Virus record (IMG/VR): IMGVR_UViG_2778261231_000014
Coordinates: 1 to 13,592 of that record
From: a virus
Taxonomy: Duplodnaviria > Heunggongvirae > Uroviricota > Caudoviricetes
Reading direction: 5' to 3' (one strand)
Length of the DNA stretch: 13,592 nucleotides
Both the position numbers and the translations under genes were made by a program. Shown piece by piece: positions 1,732 to 10,758 of the stretch. The first letter of the stretch is position 1. Each line of letters begins with the position of its first letter. The notes under the pieces were generated by a model. The model did no database searches and had not been told where the DNA came from. It saw only the letters and a list, made by a program, of their open reading frames with translations.

Positions 1732-2601
1732 TCAGTCCCTCGCCCATGATGGGATTTCAGTCTGGCCGTAGTCTTTGCCAGCGAAGTTCTCGGATACGCG
1801 AGACTGATTGCGGGTAGGCTGCTTGGCGCCCTTAGGCTCAAACAATCCCTGCCAGCCGTTAGCGATGCTCTGGTTTATAATTTCTTCAGGCTGATATCCG
1901 CTGCACTTGCAACGCTCGAGCAGGTTGATGGCCTGGGTAACCGTCTGCTGAGACTTGATCGGTTTCTTCAGGTCGCGACGATAATCGACCCATGACTTCC
2001 AGACTGAAACTGACAGCCATTCAGGAAGGTCAACACCAGCCGGATCGAACGAAGCATGTTTGGGGGATTTAGGGGGTTTATTAATATTGTCTTTATTGTC
2101 TTTTGTAATAGTGTCTTTTGTGTGTCCCCATTTTGGTGACAGGGTTGTCACTGTTTTGGTGACACTTTTTGTCACCACCGTAGGGACACTGTCACTACCA
2201 TGGTGACAGTCACTACTATGGTGACATTTTGGCGCAGGCTTAGTGCCCGGAATTACCCACTCACTCAGGTTTTTGTTGGGCCCGATCAGCATGCCGTCGG
2301 ACACCAAAACATTCATCGCAATGAGTTCGTTTTTGGCAGCGTTAACCTTCTGGCGAGGTAGCCTGGTCAGCTCAGAAAGTTGTGAGTCTGCTATGCGGTC
2401 CATCTTCTTGTTGAACCCATAGGTTTTGCGGCAAACAGCATGAGCTACCTTGGCCTGATTTTTGGTCAGGTTCGCGCCGATAAGCTCCTCATACAACTCG
2501 TTTGCCAGACGGGTGTACCCATCGTCTGTATCGGCCACGCGTTGCTCCTGTATTCCCGAAACTACAGCGGGAAAGTTGAGAATTTCTGCGGTGTTTGACA
2601 T
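1732..2601 (-). CDS. Replication initiator protein, lambda O-like N-terminal domain
   Basis: N-terminus MSNTAEILNF...ADTDDGYTRLAN...LTKNQAKV...RKTYGFNKKMDRIADSQLSELTRLP...GPNKNLSEW closely follows the lambda O N-terminal domain as I remember it. ATG 2601-2599 with GGGAG RBS; the track ORF starts at an upstream in-frame GTG at 2628. Iterons lie inside the central linker. Confidence 0.85.
   Translation of the reverse strand: MSNTAEILNFPAVVSGIQEQRVADTDDGYTRLANELYEELIGANLTKNQAKVAHAVCRKTYGFNKKMDRIADSQLSELTRLPRQKVNAAKNELIAMNVLVSDGMLIGPNKNLSEWVIPGTKPAPKCHHSSDCHHGSDSVPTVVTKSVTKTVTTLSPKWGHTKDTITKDNKDNINKPPKSPKHASFDPAGVDLPEWLSVSVWKSWVDYRRDLKKPIKSQQTVTQAINLLERCKCSGYQPEEIINQSIANGWQGLFEPKGAKQPTRNQSRVSENFAGKDYGQTEIPSWARD
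2075..2230. repeat. ori-like element inside the O-like gene: four to five roughly 22-bp iterons plus an adjacent AT-rich tract
   Basis: Repeated units TTTTGGTGACAGGGTTGTCACTG / TTTTGGTGACACTTTTTGTCACC / ...GGGACACTGTCACTA / CCATGGTGACAGTCACTACT / ATGGTGACATTTT at 2131-2230; AT-rich tract with repeated ATTGTCTTT at about 2075-2130. Same layout as lambda ori inside O. Confidence 0.6.
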
Positions 2602-2604
2602 ACT
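2576..2604 (+). promoter_or_regulatory. Putative promoter for a short + strand (antisense) transcript: TTGAGA-17-CATACT
   Basis: -35-like TTGAGA at 2576-2581 and -10-like CATACT at 2599-2604 with 17-bp spacer. Weak match; proposed mainly because a strong + strand terminator lies about 70 nt downstream. Confidence 0.25.
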
Positions 2605-2640
2605 TACTCCCGTTACTTGCCGTAACACAGTGTGATAAGG

Positions 2641-2676
2641 GCCTTTGAAGTTACCGCTTCAAGGGCTTTTTCTTTT
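2641..2676 (+). terminator. Rho-independent terminator on the + strand, in the gap between the O-like and YdaT-like genes
   Basis: 10-bp stem GCCTTTGAAG / CTTCAAGGGC (one G-U pair), 6-nt loop, then TTTTTCTTTT. The U-tract is 3' only on the + strand, opposite to the local genes. Confidence 0.6.
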
Positions 2677-2686
2677 CTTGTGCCTC

Positions 2687-3229
2687 TCATATAACCCCCA
2701 ACATTGACGTGACCATCGTCATCAGCGGCCCTACCTGCTCCGGCATGAGGCGGAACAGCGACGCTATACCCTCGCTTACCTCTTTCAGCTTCTGATGCTC
2801 TGGAGCGCCCAGAAGCACTGCCTGCTTAGCTTCGGCACACTCTTTCATCGCGGATGCGATCAGCGACATCGTGTCGTTCTGTGGTGCAAGGCGGTTGCGA
2901 AATTCCAGTGGAAGTACCGCCATGATTGCGGGCGTCAGCTGGCGCACGTTCTCGCGGTACTGCTCAGAGTCGAAACGGTTATCCAGAAAGCGAAAAAGTT
3001 TCTGGCGCGCCCTGCTGATGTCTTCCGGGAAGCTGATGGCGGTACCGCCCTGCTCCCGGTATTCGTTGATGATCAGTGCCGAAACGACGTCCTGATTGTC
3101 CAGCGCCGAAGACCATGCCCGGACCGCATCGCGGATCTTTTCGTGGTCTGGCGCCGCCTTAGGTTGAGCGCGGTTTATCATCGCTCCCGGGTGTATTCCG
3201 GTATTGTGTTGATACGCAAGTGAATGCAT
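2687..3229 (-). CDS. YdaT-like regulatory protein (CII-position analog of Rac-type prophages)
   Basis: Sits immediately downstream of the cro-like gene. Motifs EYREQGG and LTPAIMAVLPLEFRNRL resemble Rac YdaT as I recall it. Start could be ATG 3229 or internal ATG 3181. Confidence 0.6.
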   Translation of the reverse strand: MHSLAYQHNTGIHPGAMINRAQPKAAPDHEKIRDAVRAWSSALDNQDVVSALIINEYREQGGTAISFPEDISRARQKLFRFLDNRFDSEQYRENVRQLTPAIMAVLPLEFRNRLAPQNDTMSLIASAMKECAEAKQAVLLGAPEHQKLKEVSEGIASLFRLMPEQVGPLMTMVTSMLGVI

Positions 3230-3258
3230 TGCTTTCCCTTTCGTGGTTAGGGCCGCCG

Positions 3259-3480
3259 TTAGGCGGCAAAGATACCTGGATATAGAACTTCGCGAGGAAG
3301 CCCCGTCACTTCTTCGTACTTACGCATTTTTGTTACTGGAAGGCTGCCACCTCGCTTTTTAAGCATATTGATGGCCTGTGGCGTTACGCCGACCTTTTCA
3401 GCAAGCACCTTTTGAGAGCCGCCCACTGCATTAATGGCTTTCTCAAGCGGGGTGCTTGCGTTGGATTCTTTGTTGATCAT
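3259..3480 (-). CDS. Cro/YdaS-like small HTH regulator (73 aa)
   Basis: HTH-like segment QKVLAEKVGVTPQAINMLKK; GGAG RBS 7 nt upstream of ATG 3480; divergent from the repressor gene across an operator region. Confidence 0.7.
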   Translation of the reverse strand: MINKESNASTPLEKAINAVGGSQKVLAEKVGVTPQAINMLKKRGGSLPVTKMRKYEEVTGLPREVLYPGIFAA

Positions 3481-3597
3481 GTTTTGCTCCGCTCATGTGT
3501 AATCAACACCATGTTAATTCATGATGTGGATTAAATCAACATTATGGTGATGGAAAAAATCCACATGTTGTTTACCATGCATGGAGCGGAGGGTTTT
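3481..3597. promoter_or_regulatory. Immunity operator/promoter region (OR-like) between the divergent cro-like and cI-like genes
   Basis: Four copies of AATC(A/C)ACA or its complement at 3501-3508, 3525-3532 (TGTGGATT), 3534-3541, 3558-3565. 3525-3541 forms an imperfect 17-bp palindrome TGTGGATTAAATCAACA. A leftward TTGATT-17-TAACAT promoter candidate lies on the - strand. Confidence 0.6.
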
Positions 3598-4308
3598 ATG
3601 AGTAGCATTTCTGAAAGAATTAAATTTTTACTGGCAAGGGAAGGCTTGAAGCAGCGGGATTTGGCTGAGGCTTTGTCGACTAGCCCACAGACCGTCAACA
3701 ACTGGATAAAAAGAGACGCGTTAAGTCGTGAGGCGGCGCAACAAATATCTGAAAAATTCGGTTATTCTCTTGACTGGTTATTAAATGGAGAGGGTTCTCC
3801 AAAGAAGGATCTGGAGAGCAACATCCCGCCAGAGTCTGAGTGGGGAGTTGTTGATGCATGGGATAAAGACACCCCGCTTCCTGTTGATGAGGTTGAAGTG
3901 CCATTTCTTAAGGATATTGAATTTGCGTGTGGTGATGGTCGAGTTCAGTGCGAAGACCACAATGGATTTAAGCTGAGATTCTCCAAGGCAACGCTCAGAA
4001 GAGTGGGTGCAAATAGTGATGGTTCTGGAGTGCTTTGCTTTCCCGCTTCTGGTGACAGCATGGAGCCCGTTATTCCTGACGGCGCAACGGTAGCAGTCGA
4101 TACAGGCAACAAGCGGATTATTGACGGCGAACTCTATGCTATTAACCAGGGCGATTTAAAGCGCATAAAGCAGCTTTATCGAAAGCCTGGTGGGAAGCTA
4201 TTAATACGAAGCATCAATCGCGATTATGACGATGAAGAGGCTGATGAGGCAGATGTCGAGATAATCGGTTTTGTGTTCTGGTACTCGGTATTGCGATATC
4301 GCCGATAA
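3598..4308 (+). CDS. CI-like phage repressor (N-terminal XRE-type HTH plus C-terminal S24/LexA-like peptidase)
   Basis: HTH RIKFLLAREGLKQRDLAEALSTSPQTVNNWIK; S24 signature GDSMEP and a downstream Lys (LKRIK). Start ATG 3598 with GGAGGG RBS; in-frame ATGs from 3544 exist but overlap the operators. Confidence 0.85.
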   Translation: MSSISERIKFLLAREGLKQRDLAEALSTSPQTVNNWIKRDALSREAAQQISEKFGYSLDWLLNGEGSPKKDLESNIPPESEWGVVDAWDKDTPLPVDEVEVPFLKDIEFACGDGRVQCEDHNGFKLRFSKATLRRVGANSDGSGVLCFPASGDSMEPVIPDGATVAVDTGNKRIIDGELYAINQGDLKRIKQLYRKPGGKLLIRSINRDYDDEEADEADVEIIGFVFWYSVLRYRR

Positions 4309-4314
4309 TTTTAG

Positions 4315-4425
4315 TGGCCTGAAGAGACGTTTGGGTGATAAGAGAATATCTGATAGTAGGCGTGGTTACTTTGCTCTCGGTTGTTGCGATCGTGCTTATG
4401 GTGGCCTGATGAGACGTTTGGGTGA
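4315..4425. repeat. Two copies of a 25-bp direct repeat GTGGCCTGA(A/T)GAGACGTTTGGGTGAT, 86 bp apart, between the cI-like and KilA-N genes
   Basis: Copy 1 at 4315-4339, copy 2 at 4401-4425, one mismatch. Read directly from the sequence. Confidence 0.7.
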
Positions 4426-4457: not shown

Positions 4458-5219
4458 ATGACACAGTTTCAACTTGCATTAATCGCCAGAGAAGTTGATG
4501 GAGAAGTCATCCATCTTCGCACCAAAGACGGTTACATCAATGCCACCGCAATGTGCAAGTCTGCTGGGAAGCTACTTGCTGACTATACACGACTAAAAAC
4601 AACGCAAGATTTTTTTGATGAATTATCCCGCGATATGGGGATTCCCATATCGGAATTAATTCAATCATTTAAAGGCGGAAGAGCAGAGAATCAAGGGACT
4701 TGGGTTCATCCAGACATCGCAATTAACTTAGCTCAGTGGCTATCTCCAAAATTTGCAGTGCAAGTATCGAGATGGGTGCGTGAGTGGATGTCAGGCGAAA
4801 GAGCGCCTGCCGAACTCCCTATCCACCTTAAGCGGTATATGACAAACCGAGGCAGGGTTCCTCATACGCACTTTTCTATGCTTAATGAACTGACGTTTAA
4901 CCTGGTTGCGCCACTTGAGCAGGCAGGATATACGCTGCCAGAAAAAATGGTCCCTGATATTTCAGAAGGTAGGGTTTTCTCGCAATGGCTTCGTGAAAAC
5001 CGGGGTGTTGAGCCGAAGACGTTCCCAACATATAACCATGAGTACCCAGATGGCCGGACATTCCCGGTACGTCTATACCCAAACGAATATCTTGCAGATT
5101 TCAAACAACACTTCAACGAAGTGTGGCTGCCTCAGTACGCTCCTAAATATTTTGCAGAACGAGACCAAAGGGCATTGACGTTGATTGAGAAAATCATGTT
5201 GCCTGACCTTGATTCCTAA
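4458..5219 (+). CDS. KilA-N domain protein (253 aa) with an unassigned C-terminal domain
   Basis: N-terminal approximately 100 aa (INATAMCKSAGKLLADYTRLKTTQDFF...VHPDIAINLAQWLSPKFAVQVSRWV) fit the KilA-N/APSES-like fold. AGGA RBS; lower GC than the flanks. Confidence 0.65.
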   Translation: MTQFQLALIAREVDGEVIHLRTKDGYINATAMCKSAGKLLADYTRLKTTQDFFDELSRDMGIPISELIQSFKGGRAENQGTWVHPDIAINLAQWLSPKFAVQVSRWVREWMSGERAPAELPIHLKRYMTNRGRVPHTHFSMLNELTFNLVAPLEQAGYTLPEKMVPDISEGRVFSQWLRENRGVEPKTFPTYNHEYPDGRTFPVRLYPNEYLADFKQHFNEVWLPQYAPKYFAERDQRALTLIEKIMLPDLDS

Positions 5220-5227
5220 ATGTTATA

Positions 5228-5250
5228 CCCGGCCACCAAGCCGGGGTTTT
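5228..5250 (+). terminator. Putative intrinsic terminator after the KilA-N gene
   Basis: Stem CCCGGC / GCCGGG, loop CACCAA, followed by GTTTT. Sits between the convergent KilA-N and 65-aa genes. Confidence 0.4.
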
Positions 5251-5446
5251 ACTGCCCTTTCCGCACTATCTCAGCTGCATCCCTGTTCACACCCTTACCT
5301 ATCACGTTTCCCGTTTCCTTCCGGTACCGTTCCAGCTTGTCGATGATGTTTTGCTGGGTCATAGGTAAATCTGCCAGTGACAACTCCATGACCGCCCGCC
5401 CCATGGCGTGAACCATCATGTTCACTCTTTCTTCATCCAAGCCCAT
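5249..5446 (-). CDS. Small hypothetical protein (65 aa), divergent from the early-left promoter
   Basis: AAGGAG RBS 8 nt upstream of ATG 5446-5444; possible extended -10 TGATATGCT on the - strand upstream. No family recognised with confidence. Confidence 0.55.
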   Translation of the reverse strand: MGLDEERVNMMVHAMGRAVMELSLADLPMTQQNIIDKLERYRKETGNVIGKGVNRDAAEIVRKGQ

Positions 5447-5501
5447 TACCCACTCCTTTTTGATGTTTTTTTCAGCATATCACTTATGCCACCAAAAAAT
5501 A

Positions 5502-5576
5502 AATCAACATAAAAATCAACAAGAAACGATTAAATCAACAAAATAAATCCACAAGGTGTTGACCTATAAATCCACA
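5502..5576. promoter_or_regulatory. Second operator-like cluster (OL-like): five direct copies of AATC(A/C)ACA
   Basis: AATCAACA at 5502, 5514, 5533; AATCCACA at 5546, 5569. Same motif family as the cI/cro intergenic region; the last copy lies between the -35 and -10 of the rightward promoter. Confidence 0.55.
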
Positions 5577-5587
5577 TGATGTTTAAT
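5559..5587 (+). promoter_or_regulatory. Putative early-left (pL-like) sigma70 promoter: TTGACC-17-TTTAAT
   Basis: TTGACC at 5559-5564, TTTAAT at 5582-5587, 17-bp spacer containing AAATCCACATGATG. Points toward the recombination-gene operon. Confidence 0.45.
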
Positions 5588-5633
5588 TATCCCATCGAAA
5601 CGAAACATCGACAGCTGAGCGAAGTTAGCCAGC

Positions 5634-5664
5634 GGCGGACAGCAAGTCGCCTGCTTTTTAACAA
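5634..5664 (+). promoter_or_regulatory. nut-like site in the leader: bulged hairpin followed by a boxA-like TGCTTTTTAACAA (alternatively a leader intrinsic terminator)
   Basis: Hairpin GGCG(G)AC-AGCAA-GTCGCC at 5634-5651, then TGCTTTTTAACAA at 5652-5664, which is one mismatch from the rrn boxA core TGCTCTTTAACAA as I recall it. Confidence 0.35.
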
Positions 5665-6003
5665 CATGCAGATTTACAGCGTCAATGACCTGTTAAGACC
5701 CCTACACGTAAACGTGCTGTATCACCGGGTGCGATCCGGTCGGTGAGAGAGTATCCCCGCGCGAGAGCGAGAACGGCGTGAGAACGGGCAACACTGGCAG
5801 GGAGTTGGCGCTGACCAATACAGGGAATGTTATGGGATGTGGTGAAGGGTTCATGGACGGGAATATGTCGCACGTAAAGCGGCGAGGCCCGAGGAGCTAT
5901 TGCCGAAGATAAGTAGGCCGAATCGGGTCGAAATGGGTCTCCCACCTACCACATCGCCAAAGCATTTCTCCCGCATCAGCGGGTAACGACAGAGGGTAAG
6001 GGG

Positions 6004-6300
6004 ATGATCGACGACATCAAGCGCATCGACTCAATGATAAATGCGCTTCGCAATATGAAACAGGACATCAAGCGTCAGCAGAAACTAAGTGAAATAAACA
6101 GTTTAGACCTGTCGCCGAAGCAAGCTCAAAAGCGCAATGCCGATGCTGACTGGATTGCGATGGAACAGATTAAGCGTCGGCATGAGCTGCACGCTCTGTC
6201 TGTTGAGCTTGGGTTCGCTGAGCGCCGGGAAAGTTATGCTCCATTTGAATTAACTGACGGGTGGCACCGATTCGACCACAAGCCGCGCGAACCTCAATAG
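6004..6300 (+). CDS. Hypothetical early protein (98 aa), first gene of the rightward early operon
   Basis: RBS AGGGTAAGGGG before ATG 6004; followed immediately by an intrinsic terminator. No family recognised. Confidence 0.55.
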   Translation: MIDDIKRIDSMINALRNMKQDIKRQQKLSEINSLDLSPKQAQKRNADADWIAMEQIKRRHELHALSVELGFAERRESYAPFELTDGWHRFDHKPREPQ

Positions 6301-6321
6301 CCGCCTAACCAGCGGCTTTTT
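6299..6321 (+). terminator. Rho-independent terminator after the first early gene
   Basis: Stem AGCCGC / GCGGCT, 7-nt loop, then TTTTT; overlaps the TAG stop at 6298-6300. Confidence 0.6.
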
Positions 6322-6456
6322 CATACCTGGAGTCATTTACGAGTGGCTCAAGTTATGACAACCGGCGGCCATCCACCGCCCATTGAAACACTGAATAAAT
6401 GCGTTGAAGTCTTGTATTAACCGTTCCGTTCGCCGCGATAAGGCCAAGAGGAAATC

Positions 6457-6663
6457 ATGGTAAACCAGCACTACGGTACACAGACAGTAAACCGCGGCGC
6501 AGTTCAGCCGGGGATGCTCGTCAAACACAAGGATTCAACCTGGACGGCATCAGCTAATGCTCGTGGTCGTTTGTATCTGCATCGCGGCGTTGAGATGACT
6601 TACACCAGGGATTTGCTGGTTGAAGTTTATCTGAACGGTCTGGGGAATGGCCTCAGCCATTAA
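6457..6663 (+). CDS. Hypothetical small protein (68 aa)
   Basis: AAGAGG RBS 5 nt upstream of ATG 6457; same orientation as the operon. The overlapping - strand ORF 6337..6528 starts with GTG and has no RBS. Confidence 0.5.
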   Translation: MVNQHYGTQTVNRGAVQPGMLVKHKDSTWTASANARGRLYLHRGVEMTYTRDLLVEVYLNGLGNGLSH

Positions 6664-6696
6664 CGGAGAGTTGCCAAAACACTTTAAGGACAGGTG

Positions 6697-6855
6697 ATGA
6701 AAAAAGAATGTGGTTATTGCCACAAGCCTGTTGAAGAAGGCGCAGAAGTAAAGAGCACCTTGCTCTATCTCAACGGTTCGCAACTGGCACAGAAAGAAAA
6801 AGAATATTGCTCTAAGCAATGCGCTGAATACGACCAGATGGCGCACGAAAGTTAA
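6697..6855 (+). CDS. Small Cys4 protein (52 aa), putative zinc-ribbon; absent from the ORF track because it is under 60 aa
   Basis: Translation MKKECGYCHKPVEEGAEVKSTLLYLNGSQLAQKEKEYCSKQCAEYDQMAHES has CxxC...CxxxC. By position it matches the small zinc-binding gene of Rac-type prophages (ydaE position). Confidence 0.45.
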   Translation: MKKECGYCHKPVEEGAEVKSTLLYLNGSQLAQKEKEYCSKQCAEYDQMAHES

Positions 6856-6940
6856 ATAGCAGTCCTGAAATATGAAATGAAAAATTCGCCATTAATTTGG
6901 CGCGGCTTCTTACACCCTTAATTTAACAACTGGAGATTTT

Positions 6941-7228
6941 ATGGAAATCGTAAAAATCGAAATGAACCTGAAAGCAGTGAATAAAGAAGTGGCTGCATTC
7001 AACTGCGAGAAGAAAGTATCAGGCGTTATTCACTCAACTACAAACGGTGAAACAACAGTCATTCTCGACGGTGGCTATGTGCTTGGCAAGTTTGATTGCC
7101 CGCACTGCGCCATTGAGGAGATCAGCTTGCTGGTACTCAAAATCAGCGATAGCGATTACGCCGGCTGGGGAACCTACCGTACATACAAGCAAGATTTTAT
7201 GAATGAGGCGATCGTAGCCGTCAGTTAA
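6941..7228 (+). CDS. Hypothetical protein (95 aa) immediately upstream of the recE-like gene (racC position)
   Basis: GGAG RBS 5 nt upstream of ATG 6941; a hairpin GCCCAC-CGAA-GTGGGC without a U-tract follows at 7235-7250. Confidence 0.55.
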   Translation: MEIVKIEMNLKAVNKEVAAFNCEKKVSGVIHSTTNGETTVILDGGYVLGKFDCPHCAIEEISLLVLKISDSDYAGWGTYRTYKQDFMNEAIVAVS

Positions 7229-7368
7229 GCGAAAGCCCACCGAAGTGGGCCCGCCATGTCCGGCCTCACCGACCAAAGTTACACCGGAAACAACATTAAA
7301 ACCAAAGTTAACCCAATGGGCGCTATCAATGGTCCGGGGATTCTAACACCCAAAAATGAGGATCTCAC

Positions 7369-10300
7369 ATGGAATTCTTTAATGTGGTTAAAGCCACTCA
7401 GAAATCCGGAAAGCAAGATGCAGTGGTCTGGTTCACTGCTAAAACCGAGGCTCGCGCCAATCTGATGCTGGATGTTGCGCTGGAAGATGCAGGTATCGAA
7501 ACAGGTCGGGGTAAGGACTACGCCAAACCGATTCGCACTGATTTCCCAGTTGTCGACGGCCTGCCGAAAGAAGGTGAAGTTGATTTTACCTGGTGTGATC
7601 GCTACGAGCTTCAGGACGATGGGCGCACCTGGCTGCCAAAAGCCGCTGGTGTGTCTACTGGTTCCGTTGACGCCCCCTACACACCTACTCCGACCGTAAT
7701 CGTTGAAGATGCGACTGCGTCCGAAATTGTCCCGGTTGAAAACCGTACTCCAGCGGTCCGCTTTGCCGTCCATCTGATGAACGATAAATACCAAACCCAC
7801 GTCACTAAAGAGCAGCAGTTGGCTGCCAGCGAAATGTCACTGGATGAAGGCAATACATATCTCCATAGCCTGCTTGTGGCAAGGAACGATGTGCCCGCGA
7901 CCGCCAAACTCAGCCTGAATGCTGAGTGGAAAATGATTCGGGCGGTTAAGGACATTTTCACACCCGACGAAGAGCACGAACCAAGATTGATCGCTGCATT
8001 CATGTCTGACTGGGTGAACACCGATGCCGGTGACCGCAATCAACTGGTAGAAGACTGGCGCAGTGGTAAGTTGCAGTTGCTCAAAACTGAAACCAGCAAC
8101 GCTGCTGACGTTACAACGGGTCAAGATCTCACTGTTGAGGACGGTATCCAGACCGACGAGAACGGCCGGGCAGAAGGTGGCGTCGTTGATGGTGAAGTCG
8201 ATACCGAAGAGCAATCCCAGCAGACACAGCAACCGAACCTGATCGTTGTTGCCACCCTGCCATTCCGCCAGCGCGTACTGGCTCAGTTCATCGGTGATGG
8301 TGAATATCTCTATCACATCGACGCAGGGCAGAAAAATGAGATTGTCCGCCTTGAGATGGACACCGATGACGCGTACGTCCAGAACCTGCTGCTGGCAGCT
8401 GAGAATGTGGAAGCATTCAAAAAAGCCATTGAGCACGATATTCATAAAGTCGTGAATGCCGTTAAGAAAGTCTTCCCTGTCGATGGAAAAATCCCTGAAC
8501 TCGCAACCTTAATCCAGTTTTTGAAATTGTGGTTCGCTACAGATCACATCGACCGCGGTATCCTCGTTCGCGAATGGGCCGCCGGTAATCGCATCAGTAG
8601 TGTGCAGCGTACTGATTCCGGCACTAATGCCGACGGCGGTTACGTCACTGACCGTGGACCTGACGCACACCACACACTGGACACTCTCGATTTAGAGATT
8701 GCGTGTGCCCTTCTGCCTATGGACTTCAACCACTTCGAGATCCCGGGCAGCATTCTTCGTCGCGCTAAAGAAATCGTGACCAAAAAAGAAGAACCATGGA
8801 AATCATGGAGCAACATCCTGCGCAATCAGCCAGGCGTTCTGGGTGTTAACCGCACGGCTATTTTTAACCTGGTACGTATCGCACCGGAAAATATTCATTT
8901 AACTCCTGTCGCTCACCTGGAATTTGTTAACCAGACCATGACAGCCGCGTTCAATTCCGCGGTCGAGTTATTGCCGTTGCATGAGGCTGAACCCGCAGCA
9001 CAGGAAATTCCCCAACCTGAAGGTAAGGAGTCTCCGCGCAAATCCTTCTGCACTCACGAAGAGAACCTGCAACGCGTGCGTGAAGAAGGAGCACGCCGCC
9101 GCGCAGAGGAAGCGGCAGCACAACCGCAGAAAGTCGAACAAGAACTGGTTAAAAATGTCGGCAACGGAATATTCGACGTTACGGCTTTGCTGCAGAACTC
9201 AGCAACTCATGGCACGAAAAAGGCTACGGAGACCACCAGCAATGTGCAGGTTCAAGAAACTGTCAGTGATGAAAAACAAGCTGGTGATGAAGTACAGCCA
9301 GGCGAAAGCAGTCTGGAGTCTGGTGAAGAGTCAGATACCAGCCAGAAGGACGATGTAAACCAGAATACGGATTCTGTCGCCAAAAATAGCGATTCTGTAA
9401 GCCAAACCGAACCAGTTGCAGCACAAACCGAGCCAGAAGCGCAATCTGACGAACCGGCTGTTGTTTATCCCGCTTATTTCGAGCCAGGCCGCTATGAAGG
9501 GCTGCCAAACGAGGTTTACCACGCCGCCAACGGCATCAGCTCAACCCAGGTGAAAGATGCGCGCGTTTCGCTGATGTACTTCAATGCGCGCCACGTAGAG
9601 AAAACCATCGTCAAAGAGCGCTCAGCGGTGCTGGACATGGGCAACTTGGTGCATGCGCTGGCGTTGCAGCCTGAACTACTGGACGCAGAATTCAGCGTTG
9701 AACCGGTGATCCCTGAAGGCGCATTCACAACGGCCGCGACCCTGCGCGCCTTTATCGATGAGCACAATGCCAGCCTGCCGGCGCTGCTGTCTGCCGACGA
9801 CATCAAGGTGTTACTGGAAGAGTACAACGCCACCCTGCCGCCGCAGGTTCCGCTTGGCGCTAACCTGGAAGAAACGGCACAGAACTATATGGCGCTGCCA
9901 GCTGACTTCCAGCGTATTGATGGTGACCAGAAGCAGACGGCGACGGCAATGAAGGCATGCATTAAAGAGTACAACGCCACCCTGCCGCCGCCGGTTAAAA
10001 CCAGCGGCAGCCGTGACGCGCTGCTGGAGCAGTTGGCAATCATCAACCCTGACCTTGTGGCTCAGGAAGCACAGAAACCGGCACCACTGAAAGTGTCCGG
10101 TACCAAAGCAGACATGATCCAGGCCGTGAAGGCAGTCAAACCAGATGCCGTATTTGCCGACGAACTGCTGGATGCCTGGCGCGATAACCCGGAAGGAAAA
10201 GTGCTGGTCACCCGCCAGCAGCTGAGCACCGCGCTGAATATTCAAAAAGCGCTTCTGGCACACCCGACCGCCGGCATGCTGCTGACCCACCCTAGCCGAG

Positions 10301-10758
10301 CCGTTGAGGTGAGCTACTTTGGTTTTGACGAGGAGACGGGCTTGGAAGTTCGTGTGCGCCCTGACCTTGAGATCGACCTGGATGGCGTGCGTATAGGTGC
10401 AGACCTGAAAACCATCAGCATGTGGAATGTTAAGCAGGAAAGCCTGCGCGCCAGGCTACACCGGGAAATTATTGAACGTGATTATCACCTGAGCGCGGCT
10501 ATGTACTGCGAAACCGCAGCGCTGGATCAGTTCTTCTGGATTTTCGTCAACAAAGACGAGAACTACCACTGGATCGCCATCATCGAGGCATCCGCTGAAC
10601 TACTGGAGCTGGGTATGCTCGAGTACCGCAAAGCGATGCGCAATATCGCAACCGGATTCGACACAGGTGAATGGCCAGCGCCAATCACTGCTGACTACAC
10701 CGACGAACTGAACGACTTCGACCTGCGCCGCCTTGAAGCGCTGCGTACTCAGGCATAA
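7369..10758 (+). CDS. recE: RecE-like exonuclease VIII (1129 aa): long N-terminal region, acidic linker, C-terminal PD-(D/E)XK nuclease domain
   Basis: Single long ORF with GAGGA RBS. C-terminal RVRPDLEIDLDGVRIGADLKT fits a PD...(D/E)xK signature; N-terminal DFPVVDGLPKEGEVDFTW resembles what I recall of RecE. Directly followed by an annealing-protein gene. Confidence 0.7.
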   Translation: MEFFNVVKATQKSGKQDAVVWFTAKTEARANLMLDVALEDAGIETGRGKDYAKPIRTDFPVVDGLPKEGEVDFTWCDRYELQDDGRTWLPKAAGVSTGSVDAPYTPTPTVIVEDATASEIVPVENRTPAVRFAVHLMNDKYQTHVTKEQQLAASEMSLDEGNTYLHSLLVARNDVPATAKLSLNAEWKMIRAVKDIFTPDEEHEPRLIAAFMSDWVNTDAGDRNQLVEDWRSGKLQLLKTETSNAADVTTGQDLTVEDGIQTDENGRAEGGVVDGEVDTEEQSQQTQQPNLIVVATLPFRQRVLAQFIGDGEYLYHIDAGQKNEIVRLEMDTDDAYVQNLLLAAENVEAFKKAIEHDIHKVVNAVKKVFPVDGKIPELATLIQFLKLWFATDHIDRGILVREWAAGNRISSVQRTDSGTNADGGYVTDRGPDAHHTLDTLDLEIACALLPMDFNHFEIPGSILRRAKEIVTKKEEPWKSWSNILRNQPGVLGVNRTAIFNLVRIAPENIHLTPVAHLEFVNQTMTAAFNSAVELLPLHEAEPAAQEIPQPEGKESPRKSFCTHEENLQRVREEGARRRAEEAAAQPQKVEQELVKNVGNGIFDVTALLQNSATHGTKKATETTSNVQVQETVSDEKQAGDEVQPGESSLESGEESDTSQKDDVNQNTDSVAKNSDSVSQTEPVAAQTEPEAQSDEPAVVYPAYFEPGRYEGLPNEVYHAANGISSTQVKDARVSLMYFNARHVEKTIVKERSAVLDMGNLVHALALQPELLDAEFSVEPVIPEGAFTTAATLRAFIDEHNASLPALLSADDIKVLLEEYNATLPPQVPLGANLEETAQNYMALPADFQRIDGDQKQTATAMKACIKEYNATLPPPVKTSGSRDALLEQLAIINPDLVAQEAQKPAPLKVSGTKADMIQAVKAVKPDAVFADELLDAWRDNPEGKVLVTRQQLSTALNIQKALLAHPTAGMLLTHPSRAVEVSYFGFDEETGLEVRVRPDLEIDLDGVRIGADLKTISMWNVKQESLRARLHREIIERDYHLSAAMYCETAALDQFFWIFVNKDENYHWIAIIEASAELLELGMLEYRKAMRNIATGFDTGEWPAPITADYTDELNDFDLRRLEALRTQA

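Follow-up and report, generated by a model that had tools for sequence, protein, structure and literature searches.

The leftward early transcript of a phi80-type lambdoid prophage carries an RNA in which a boxA resembling that of ribosomal RNA (rrn) operons is followed by a five-helix domain. This RNA lies in a stretch of 13,592 nucleotides (nt) from the Caudoviricetes record IMGVR_UViG_2778261231_000014 (the window), of which positions 5590-6003 are, by alignment, the leader between the pL promoter and the N gene of such a prophage. We found that boxA and the domain are one conserved unit, which is present in more than 100 copies in more than 100 viral contigs. On balance, we favour the reading that positions 5634-5801 are a cis-acting RNA, similar to nut and put, that recruits Nus factors for processive antitermination; we infer its binding of Nus factors and its antitermination activity from the sequence. 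The region is made up as follows.

5634-5651, plus strand: bulged hairpin GGCgGAC-agcaa-GUCGCC, adjoining the 5′ side of boxA, the position of boxB in rrn
5652-5664, plus strand: boxA, TGCTTTTTAACAA, directly after the hairpin
5689-5801, plus strand: five-helix RNA domain of 113 nt (from RNAalifold, covariance model R1 and pair counts)
5689-5694 with 5796-5801: helix P1, which closes the junction
5700-5702 with 5786-5788: helix P2
5705-5708 with 5713-5716: helix P3, the 12-mer CACGTAAACGTG annotated in phi80 as 'nutL core'
5717-5718 with 5750-5751: helix P4a
5722-5728 with 5740-5746, plus 5730-5731 with 5737-5738: helix P4, apical loop CGAUC, apical sequence GGGUGCGAUCC
5757-5759 with 5774-5776, plus 5760-5762 with 5767-5769: helix P5, loop GAGA

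The boxA of the window agrees with the rrn sequence TGCTCTTTAACAA at 12 of 13 positions, as a first-pass annotation made from the sequence alone had noted; the sole difference is a transition, C5 to U, which is also the only departure from the consensus UGCUCUUUA, carried in perfect form by relatives. No other site on either strand of the window matches the 13-mer with two or fewer mismatches. At that stringency 0.35 matches are expected by chance, and 59 of 200 shuffled sequences contained at least one, so the reality of boxA rests on its conservation (with at most one mismatch, our own arithmetic gives about 0.016 expected matches in 27 kb). Every family member that we found retains boxA, as TGCTCTTTAACAA, CGCTCTTTAACAA, TGCTTTTTAACAA or minor variants of these, and in Stx and APSE phages it is a perfect rrn boxA (13/13). 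Homology with Stx2a phages begins precisely at boxA, and across members boxA lies 26-100 nt upstream of P1.

The bulged hairpin before boxA is present where it had been predicted and is weak (-5.7 kcal/mol). It varies between lineages, yet it recurs with other sequences and with compensatory changes in many of them, examples of the stems that adjoin boxA being GGCgGAC/GUCGCC, GCCaGAC/GUCaGGC, GGCGG/CCGCC and GAGAC/GUCUC. In the Stx type the hairpin is 6 nt from boxA, and in another lineage the stem encloses boxA. The first-pass annotation had called a hairpin followed by boxA the order of 'nut or rrn' sites; this holds for rrn, whose order is boxB-boxA-boxC, and not for lambda nut, whose order is boxA-boxB. 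In the rrn antiterminator, boxA alone suffices and boxB and boxC are dispensable (PMC2724277), and boxA is the binding site of the NusB-NusE pair (PMC2724277, PMC3177189).

Compensatory change extends through the five-helix domain. In an alignment of 35 distinct sequences fitted to model R1, 96.6% of cells were paired and 18 of the 28 pairs showed compensatory changes. None of 500 shuffles matched the real alignment on any measure, and sliding the pairing partners lowered pairing to 33-42%. Near-invariant positions include the junction segments GACCCC, GAGAG and GAACGGGCAACAC and the P4 apex GGGYGCGAUCC. A covariance-model search across homologous phages, which had been proposed as a check on the leader, thus found conserved structure, with boxA and the leader strongly conserved in relatives. 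The suggestion that the remainder of the leader may be structured RNA was also borne out, and the conserved, covarying folding falls into two separate modules of different ancestry. A repeat of GAGAACGG, likewise pointed out beforehand, does occur at 5769 and 5780; it is not a repeat element, since the copies are helix strands of the domain (the 3′ side of P5, then the junction and the 3′ side of P2). During model building, we exchanged the initial P5 helices (86.7% paired) for a hairpin with a GAGA tetraloop and a 3-bp outer stem, the inner helix of which is 98.9% paired. We also considered the P4 apex as a tRNA-like T-loop, which one variant, GGUUCGAUC, resembles; the T-stem cannot form, and the resemblance is left unexplained. 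At the gathering threshold, no Rfam family matched this RNA in the window; with E relaxed to 10, all hits in 5500-6400 were weak or were spurious eukaryotic ones.

Judged by local BLAST (blastn) against fetched phage loci, which set the boundaries of its parts, the leader is a mosaic of RNA modules.

5592-5637, plus strand: module A, the first ~46 nt of the pL transcript, with hairpin GCUGAGCGAAGUUAGCCAGC (blastn, folds)
5652-5839, plus strand: module B, beginning exactly at boxA (blastn)
5804-5819, plus strand: small predicted hairpin GUUGG-CGCUGA-CCAAU directly 3′ of P1 (from the sequence)
5828-5964, plus strand: module C, a large stem-closed domain, closing stem 5828-5843 with 5948-5964 (folds)
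5957-6006, plus strand: module D, hairpin CCCGC-auca-GCGGG (5970-5983), Shine-Dalgarno sequence (SD) and ATG (blastn)

Module B, which holds boxA and the domain, is 94-95% identical in the Stx2a phages TL-2011c and PA2/phi346, 98.5% identical in HK225 and 80% identical in Edwardsiella phage Edno5. Module A is common to HK639, CobraSix and ENT1 at 95-100% identity, and all three have a different element downstream of it. HK639 and CobraSix share both modules A and D with phi80 (CobraSix also has a stem of the module C type), and between these shared flanks an RNA annotated in HK639 as 'putL-like antiterminator RNA' replaces boxA and the domain. Because a put-like RNA fills the same slot, the unit of boxA and domain is a positional alternative to a recognized antiterminator RNA. 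The two are unrelated in sequence: model R1 gave no hit to the HK639 locus at E up to 10. In other lineages, a different small hairpin, GUGCGAAGCGCA, takes the place of the one that follows P1. We also observed that GGCGCTGAC (window 5807-5815) equals the 5′ half of the HK97/P22-type boxB GCGCUGACAAAGCGC (HK97 locus 1470-1485) and that the two sequences part beyond it, perhaps because recombination within a former boxB left a scar here.

We gathered family members with three independent anchor words scanned over IMG/VR and by BLAST of named phages. The named phages span Enterobacterales and comprise Stx phages of Escherichia and Shigella, Edno5, the Hamiltonella phages APSE-1, -2, -3, -7 and -8, Providencia PSTCR7lys, Klebsiella ST13-OXA48phi12.2 and Erwinia LS-2018a. 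Host range was taken from these, as a scan of genome contigs with CGGGNGCGATCCGGTCGNTG was dominated by chance matches in high-GC genomes. The surroundings of the unit are those of an early operon: a site resembling a sigma-70 promoter occurs within 200 nt upstream in 58 of 92 distinct contexts (23 on the control strand), with start-to-boxA distances clustering at 57 and 72 nt, and at least one terminator-like hairpin occurs within 1.2 kb downstream in 75 of them (33 on the control strand). The order in TL-2011c is cI, a BsuBI restriction-modification pair in the rex position, promoter, element, terminator-like hairpin, Rha and recombination genes; this phage has no annotated N between cI and Q, and no boxA or element on the pR side. 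In APSE-2 a recombination module follows the element. The first gene downstream varies by lineage and may be phi80 N, Rha, a 70-amino-acid (aa) basic protein of PHROG 5305, an unknown gene or a mini open reading frame (ORF) of 2-5 codons with a strong SD. The unit is not linked to any one N family.

A second copy is an exception. Contig L138 carries, besides its leftward copy, a diverged copy 2.7 kb away on the other strand, directly after the stop of a cro-like gene, which by its layout is nutL/nutR geometry. The rightward copy has a perfect boxA and keeps P1, P3 and P4, with P5 absent. Two scans of viral contigs for further rightward copies added only L208, which carries a rightward copy of the L138 type and no other; the divergent members L191 and L179 surfaced in the second scan.

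Several contigs carry variants of this arrangement. L154 (~10380-10420) has lost all but the final ~40 nt of the element, which are joined to an ORF, and L179 (6215-6419) has a tandem duplication of the P4-P5 part inside the element; both are examples of its decay and rearrangement. In L027 (~5160-5185), L041, L067, L089, L059 and L038, a strong SD, GAGGAG, and a mini-ORF of 2-5 codons (ATG AAG CAC TAA, ATG AAG TAG or ATG AAG TAA) stand immediately 3′ of the element, followed by GCGGAUAGACCGC; such an arrangement might serve to load ribosomes or as a coupling device. A second boxA-linked sequence (...GCAAATTGAAATAGCGCC...) is common to L166, where it lies on the minus strand ~1.4 kb upstream of the leftward element, and ENT1 (1560-1640). 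Its boxA is TGCTCTTTAACAA in L166 and the variant TGCTCATTAAGAA in ENT1, and the L166 copy is on the pR side, the element studied here being on the pL side; boxA with structured RNA may thus come in several types. The pR side of L092, L099, L116, L145 and L167 has a conventional-looking nutR (CGCTCTTTAACAA, a spacer and the hairpin GGCUGAGUAAUCAGCC), which lies 1.4-3.5 kb upstream of the element on the minus strand, so the left and right sites of these phages differ in kind.

The position of the unit in the window can be read from phi80, as window 5400-6320 matches phi80 over its full length at 99.3% identity in BLAST and likewise matches the phi80 prophage of DH5alpha, DH10B and similar strains. 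We placed phi80 features on the window by carrying the annotation of JX871397 across this 99% alignment, and added one feature from record M11919.

5502-5521, 5546-5564 and 5569-5587, plus strand: OL operators, three CI sites (JX871397 annotation)
5559-5564 and 5582-5587, plus strand: pL promoter, -35 TTGACC and -10 TTTAAT separated by 17 nt (annotated phi80 pL)
5615-5892: 'nutL regulatory signal', 278 bp (M11919 record)
5652-5660, plus strand: 'nutL boxA; putative', TGCTTTTTA (JX871397 annotation)
5705-5716, plus strand: 'nutL core; putative', which is helix P3 (JX871397 annotation)
6004-6300, plus strand: phi80 'N' gene, 98 aa (JX871397 annotation)
6299-6321, plus strand: tL1A, an intrinsic terminator and the first that pL transcription must pass (JX871397 annotation; terminator scan)
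~6495-6532 of phi80, ~200 nt beyond tL1A: tL1B, a rho-dependent terminator (JX871397 annotation)

The pL-like promoter that had been proposed upstream of the leader is therefore the annotated phi80 pL, flanked by three CI operators. From its position, transcription presumably starts near 5594-5596. A generic promoter scan missed pL because its -10 element has no A at position 2. The nut- or rrn-type antitermination arrangement suggested by the first-pass annotation likewise agrees with the putative nutL boxA and the nutL signal already annotated in phi80.

Under the reading that we favour, the nascent pL RNA would soon expose an rrn-type boxA, at +58, which would recruit the host NusB-NusE(S10) pair. 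The five-helix domain (+95 to +207) would then fold and stay tethered to the elongating polymerase, where it would make additional contacts with RNA polymerase, with NusA or NusG, or with an optional phage factor; the equivalents of these contacts would be lambda N bound to boxB and the HK022 put RNA. The complex modified in this way would resist Rho on the 400-nt leader and run past tL1A, tL1B and the terminators that follow them in the leftward operon, and modules C and D would be separate devices that set translation of the first gene. A bolder version, which we put forward tentatively and regard as doubtful, is that boxA and the domain form a third class of element beside nut and put. Such an element would be self-sufficient, combining NusB-NusE recruitment of the rrn type with an RNA that binds the elongation complex directly, without N, and would serve as the early antitermination device in lambdoid phages that have no N, among them the O104:H4/O103:H25-type Stx2a phages and APSE.

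A number of points weigh against these proposals. In phi80 itself boxA has U at position 5, the position contacted by NusB, and other members vary at positions 5-6 (TGCTCATT, TGCTATTT); C5 of boxA contacts NusB extensively, and the C5A change in lambda abolishes function (PMC3177189). The pairing statistics above come from an alignment that was fitted to model R1, and the first anchor word imposed invariance on part of P4; the second and third anchors brought in compensated variants of that part. Most phages carry the leftward copy only: searches with filters off found no second, nutR-like copy in the window and the rest of the phi80 right arm or in TL-2011c, and the left/right pair is known from a single contig, L138. 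The gene counts at 128 element-bearing loci (phi80 N at 9, the PHROG 5305 protein at 11, an HK97-type N at 1 and none of these at 107) were made in windows of at most 14 kb, so that 'no N' at a locus can reflect truncation. The N-dependence of the mapped nutL region would rest on GenBank feature lines. Finally, a conserved structured junction would equally suit a regulatory RNA that binds a ligand or a protein.

The GenBank features imply a classical pair of N and nutL, in which the 98-aa phi80 N would recognize the structured RNA, for example P3 as boxB, together with Nus factors, and the wide conservation would mean that several unrelated N-like proteins use the same RNA. N, the nutL boxA and the nutL core are all annotated as such, and the M11919 signal stands directly upstream of N and tL1. 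The loops of P3 are A-rich in all lineages (UAAA, AAAA, AGAAA, CAAAA) and loosely resemble boxB, and candidate N-like basic proteins follow some members, among them the PHROG 5305 protein with PKKRQKPRKQAIKEA and, 750 nt downstream of the element in Edno5, a protein with MNSRQRRAMRYR, which resembles an arginine-rich motif. We nevertheless consider this explanation unlikely. We found no arginine-rich N-terminal motif in phi80 N, no Pfam family and no PDB relative; the protein belongs to PHROG 25091 (function unknown) and does not match the N-like PHROG 271, which HK97 N does. It is encoded at only 9 of the 128 loci. Virulent phages such as Kagunavirus have its homologues in the middle of operons, and there the element is absent from the surrounding 1.5 kb. 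Conservation of the RNA peaks in P4 and the junctions and not in P3, and P3 is 44 nt from boxA, as against the 8-15 nt that separate boxA and boxB in lambda. The family-wide distribution argues that the RNA is independent of phi80 N.

The homologues of phi80 N that we inspected (63-77% identity; L012-L015) are in small-gene clusters of virulent or unrelated phages, namely Salmonella STGO-35-1, Erwinia vB_EhrS_59, Escherichia phage 26 and Morganella Mecenats66. In the Erwinia phage, a separate gene two genes upstream of the homologue is annotated as lambda-N-like by HHpred. These settings, and the separate lambda-N-like gene, cast doubt on phi80 N as an N-type antiterminator.

Another regulatory RNA, such as an aptamer for a ligand or protein, a processed stable small RNA or a decoy, could occupy the leader with no direct role at the polymerase, boxA serving only as a shield against Rho. 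The fold, in which several helices meet at a junction that P1 closes and the junction nucleotides hardly vary, is typical of aptamers; most phages have a single copy; and protection from Rho by boxA only is established for untranslated CRISPR array RNA (PMC7665894). We judge this account to be quite improbable. There is no conserved expression platform, as the sequence 3′ of P1 is mosaic and the first genes differ, which fits an element whose effect on the polymerase is exerted from afar. Inheritance joins boxA and the domain in a single block, whose recombination boundary coincides exactly with boxA, and sister leaders have a put-like antiterminator RNA in the same slot. L138, moreover, has a copy in the nutR position.

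The first-pass annotation had offered, as its own alternative, that the hairpin at 5634-5651 with UGCUUUUUAA is an intrinsic terminator or attenuator that limits pL transcription. A permissive generic scan does list the site, with five pairs, four of them G-C, followed by TGCTTTTTAA. The stem is weak and bulged, however, and UGCU stands directly after it, so that the U-tract does not abut the stem and its start is interrupted by G and C. Relatives replace the U run with CUCUUUA, CAUUA or CUUCUUUA and keep the boxA consensus, which indicates that boxA and not a terminator is what is conserved, and in some lineages the hairpin is 6 nt away from boxA or encloses it. A leader terminator is accordingly very unlikely. 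Least credible of all is a small protein encoded on either strand: the window has ORFs of 44 aa (5778-5912, plus strand) and 87 aa (5682-5945, minus strand) and PHANOTATE placed three small coding sequences over the homologous phi346 stretch, but the plus-strand leader ORF has no SD, the phi346 calls have no PHROG match, some of the indels that alter the length of P5 are not divisible by three and the substitutions are compensatory for RNA pairing.

The ORF listing bears out that there is no credible ORF between ~5595 and the ATG at 6004, the longest on the plus strand being 26 aa (ATG 5666) and 44 aa (GTG 5778), both without an SD. Stops occur in all six frames of 5650-5803 in the window and in every frame in 23 of 36 family members; the open frames of the other members differ, and no frame is open across the homologues of 5650-5803. 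A conserved small protein, named beforehand as the outcome that would overturn the leader, was therefore not found in the homologues, and annotators have reason to avoid small-ORF calls across it. The long stretch without an ORF had been described as unusual in a gene-dense prophage: the leader is indeed ~400 nt long, which is not exceptional beside the N leaders of lambda (~220 nt) and HK97 (~250 nt). It is modestly GC- and purine-rich, as had been said (GC 55.6% against 51.2% for the window; purines 58.0% against 50.8%).

The distal part of the leader has a different ancestry. Segment 5833-5962 of module C is 91% identical (blastn) to the stretch just upstream of HK97 N. Its 16-bp closing stem is 96% paired across eight phages, with eight compensated pairs, and none of 500 shuffles equalled it; the leaders of lambda, HK97, phi80 and PA2-type phages all fold as a large domain closed by a long stem. 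The 5′ strand of module C, the boxC-like UGGGAUGUGGUG at 5833-5844, corresponds to lambda GGGGUGUGUG, which we take to be the sequence called boxC. Module D consists of ~50 nt, with the hairpin, then UAACGACAGAGGGUAAGG and then the ATG, and recurs at 95-100% identity directly before unrelated genes in HK225 (twice), HK639, ENT1, CobraSix, L021 and L092. It looks like a portable translation-initiation or recombination-boundary module, and we mapped the following copies.

L005, 3149-3177 and 3383-3406: module D
L006, 2189-2230: module D
L009 (ENT1), 2267-2315: module D
L010, 1733-1782: module D

By its alignments, the whole window is a lambdoid mosaic. Positions 5248-6452 are 99% identical to phi80, 2569-4425 (cII, cro and cI) are ~91% identical to phi80, and 6314-7771 are 99% identical to HK225, so that the window turns from phi80 to HK225-type sequence downstream of tL1A. 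At 7369-10758 it encodes a 1129-aa RecE-like protein in place of phi80's own genes of that region. On both grounds the prophage is a phi80/HK225 hybrid and not phi80 proper. The HK225-like part also has an Rfam match to isrB, an Hfq-binding small RNA of Salmonella islands, at 7230-7327 on the minus strand (38.2 bits; gathering score 35). It lies antisense between a small ORF and the ORF for the RecE-like protein, and its 3′ end is a terminator hairpin, GGGCCCAC-UUCG-GUGGGCUU.

The phi80 boxA and nutL region are already on record. Our searches of the literature and Rfam, which did not take in the primary phi80 papers, found no description of the five-helix domain, of its covariation or of its inheritance with boxA as a block, and in the same literature the spread of the unit in Enterobacterales, its occurrence in N-less phages and its equivalence in slot to put were likewise undescribed. 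The structured RNA family thus appears to be undescribed, and, as a leader RNA of roughly 150 nt conserved in more than 100 phages that include Stx phages without an annotated N, the unit is probably an undescribed variant of antitermination signals. If the proposal is correct, it would be a third solution to early antitermination, independent of the N family, and a natural experiment on what must be added to boxA and Nus factors for terminator resistance, a question that is open for rrn complexes too. In Stx2a phages of the O104:H4/O103:H25 outbreak type, whose annotations include no N gene, the element heads the leftward early operon, and from this position it may control early genes upon prophage induction. 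It is also present in APSE phages, which bear toxins of defensive aphid symbionts, and is carried by the phi80 prophage of E. coli DH5alpha, DH10B and TOP10.

Early antitermination in lambdoid phages is a textbook system with two forms, N acting with nut and the put RNA, and both lambda nut and HK022 put occur in pairs. Like lambda nut, the element lies close to the promoter in the pL transcript and precedes both the first gene and the tL terminators, and a boxA (CGCUCUUA / UGCUCUUUA) is present in the early transcript; a GU-rich boxC-like strand, which forms a long structured stem, precedes the start of N, as in lambda. It differs in having no 15-nt boxB hairpin with a GNRA-like pentaloop within ~10 nt of boxA. 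In its place, a 113-nt domain begins 25 nt downstream, and the nearest 3′ hairpin is P3 (CACG-UAAA-CGUG), which has a 4-nt loop, lies 44 nt from boxA and is inside the domain. The downstream phi80 'N' has no arginine-rich motif and is not of the N family, and the RNA is not inherited together with one N family. Paired left and right sites are also not the rule, as there is usually no rightward copy, L138 with its second copy after cro being the exception.

The distal leader can be compared with that of lambda N. In lambda, nutL is ~200 bp upstream of N and the RNA between them is highly structured; through it, RNase III modulates both the translation of N and the repression of that translation by the NUT complex (PMC5725501). 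Module C likewise stands after the nut region and before the SD of the first gene, and its closing stem is common to lambda, HK97, phi80 and others. Its interior is unrelated to that of lambda and is of the HK97 type, and in PA2-type Stx phages it stands before the Rha gene and not before N. By homology, module C of phi80 probably acts like the RNase III-modulated leader of lambda.

Put consists of two stem-loops of ~65-70 nt, has no boxA and needs no Nus factors. Like HK022 and HK639 put, the element is a structured RNA that follows the promoter and precedes the first terminator, in the slot that a put-like RNA takes in this mosaic pL leader. It could likewise act without a dedicated phage protein, and it is found in phages that have no N homologue. 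Put normally comes as putL plus putR. The put RNA transcript alone performs its function (PMC9378689).

The element also has features of the rrn antiterminator, with its boxA UGCUCUUUAACAA. In both, a hairpin precedes boxA, and boxA stands on a long stretch of untranslated RNA that has to be shielded from Rho. The GU-rich boxC-like UGGGAUGUGGUG is ~170 nt from boxA and not adjacent to it, a large RNA domain is conserved together with boxA, and the context is a phage early operon. Host boxA sites (rrn, suhB and CRISPR arrays) use NusB, NusE, NusA and NusG plus SuhB, and by analogy with rrn, host factors alone may serve the element too.

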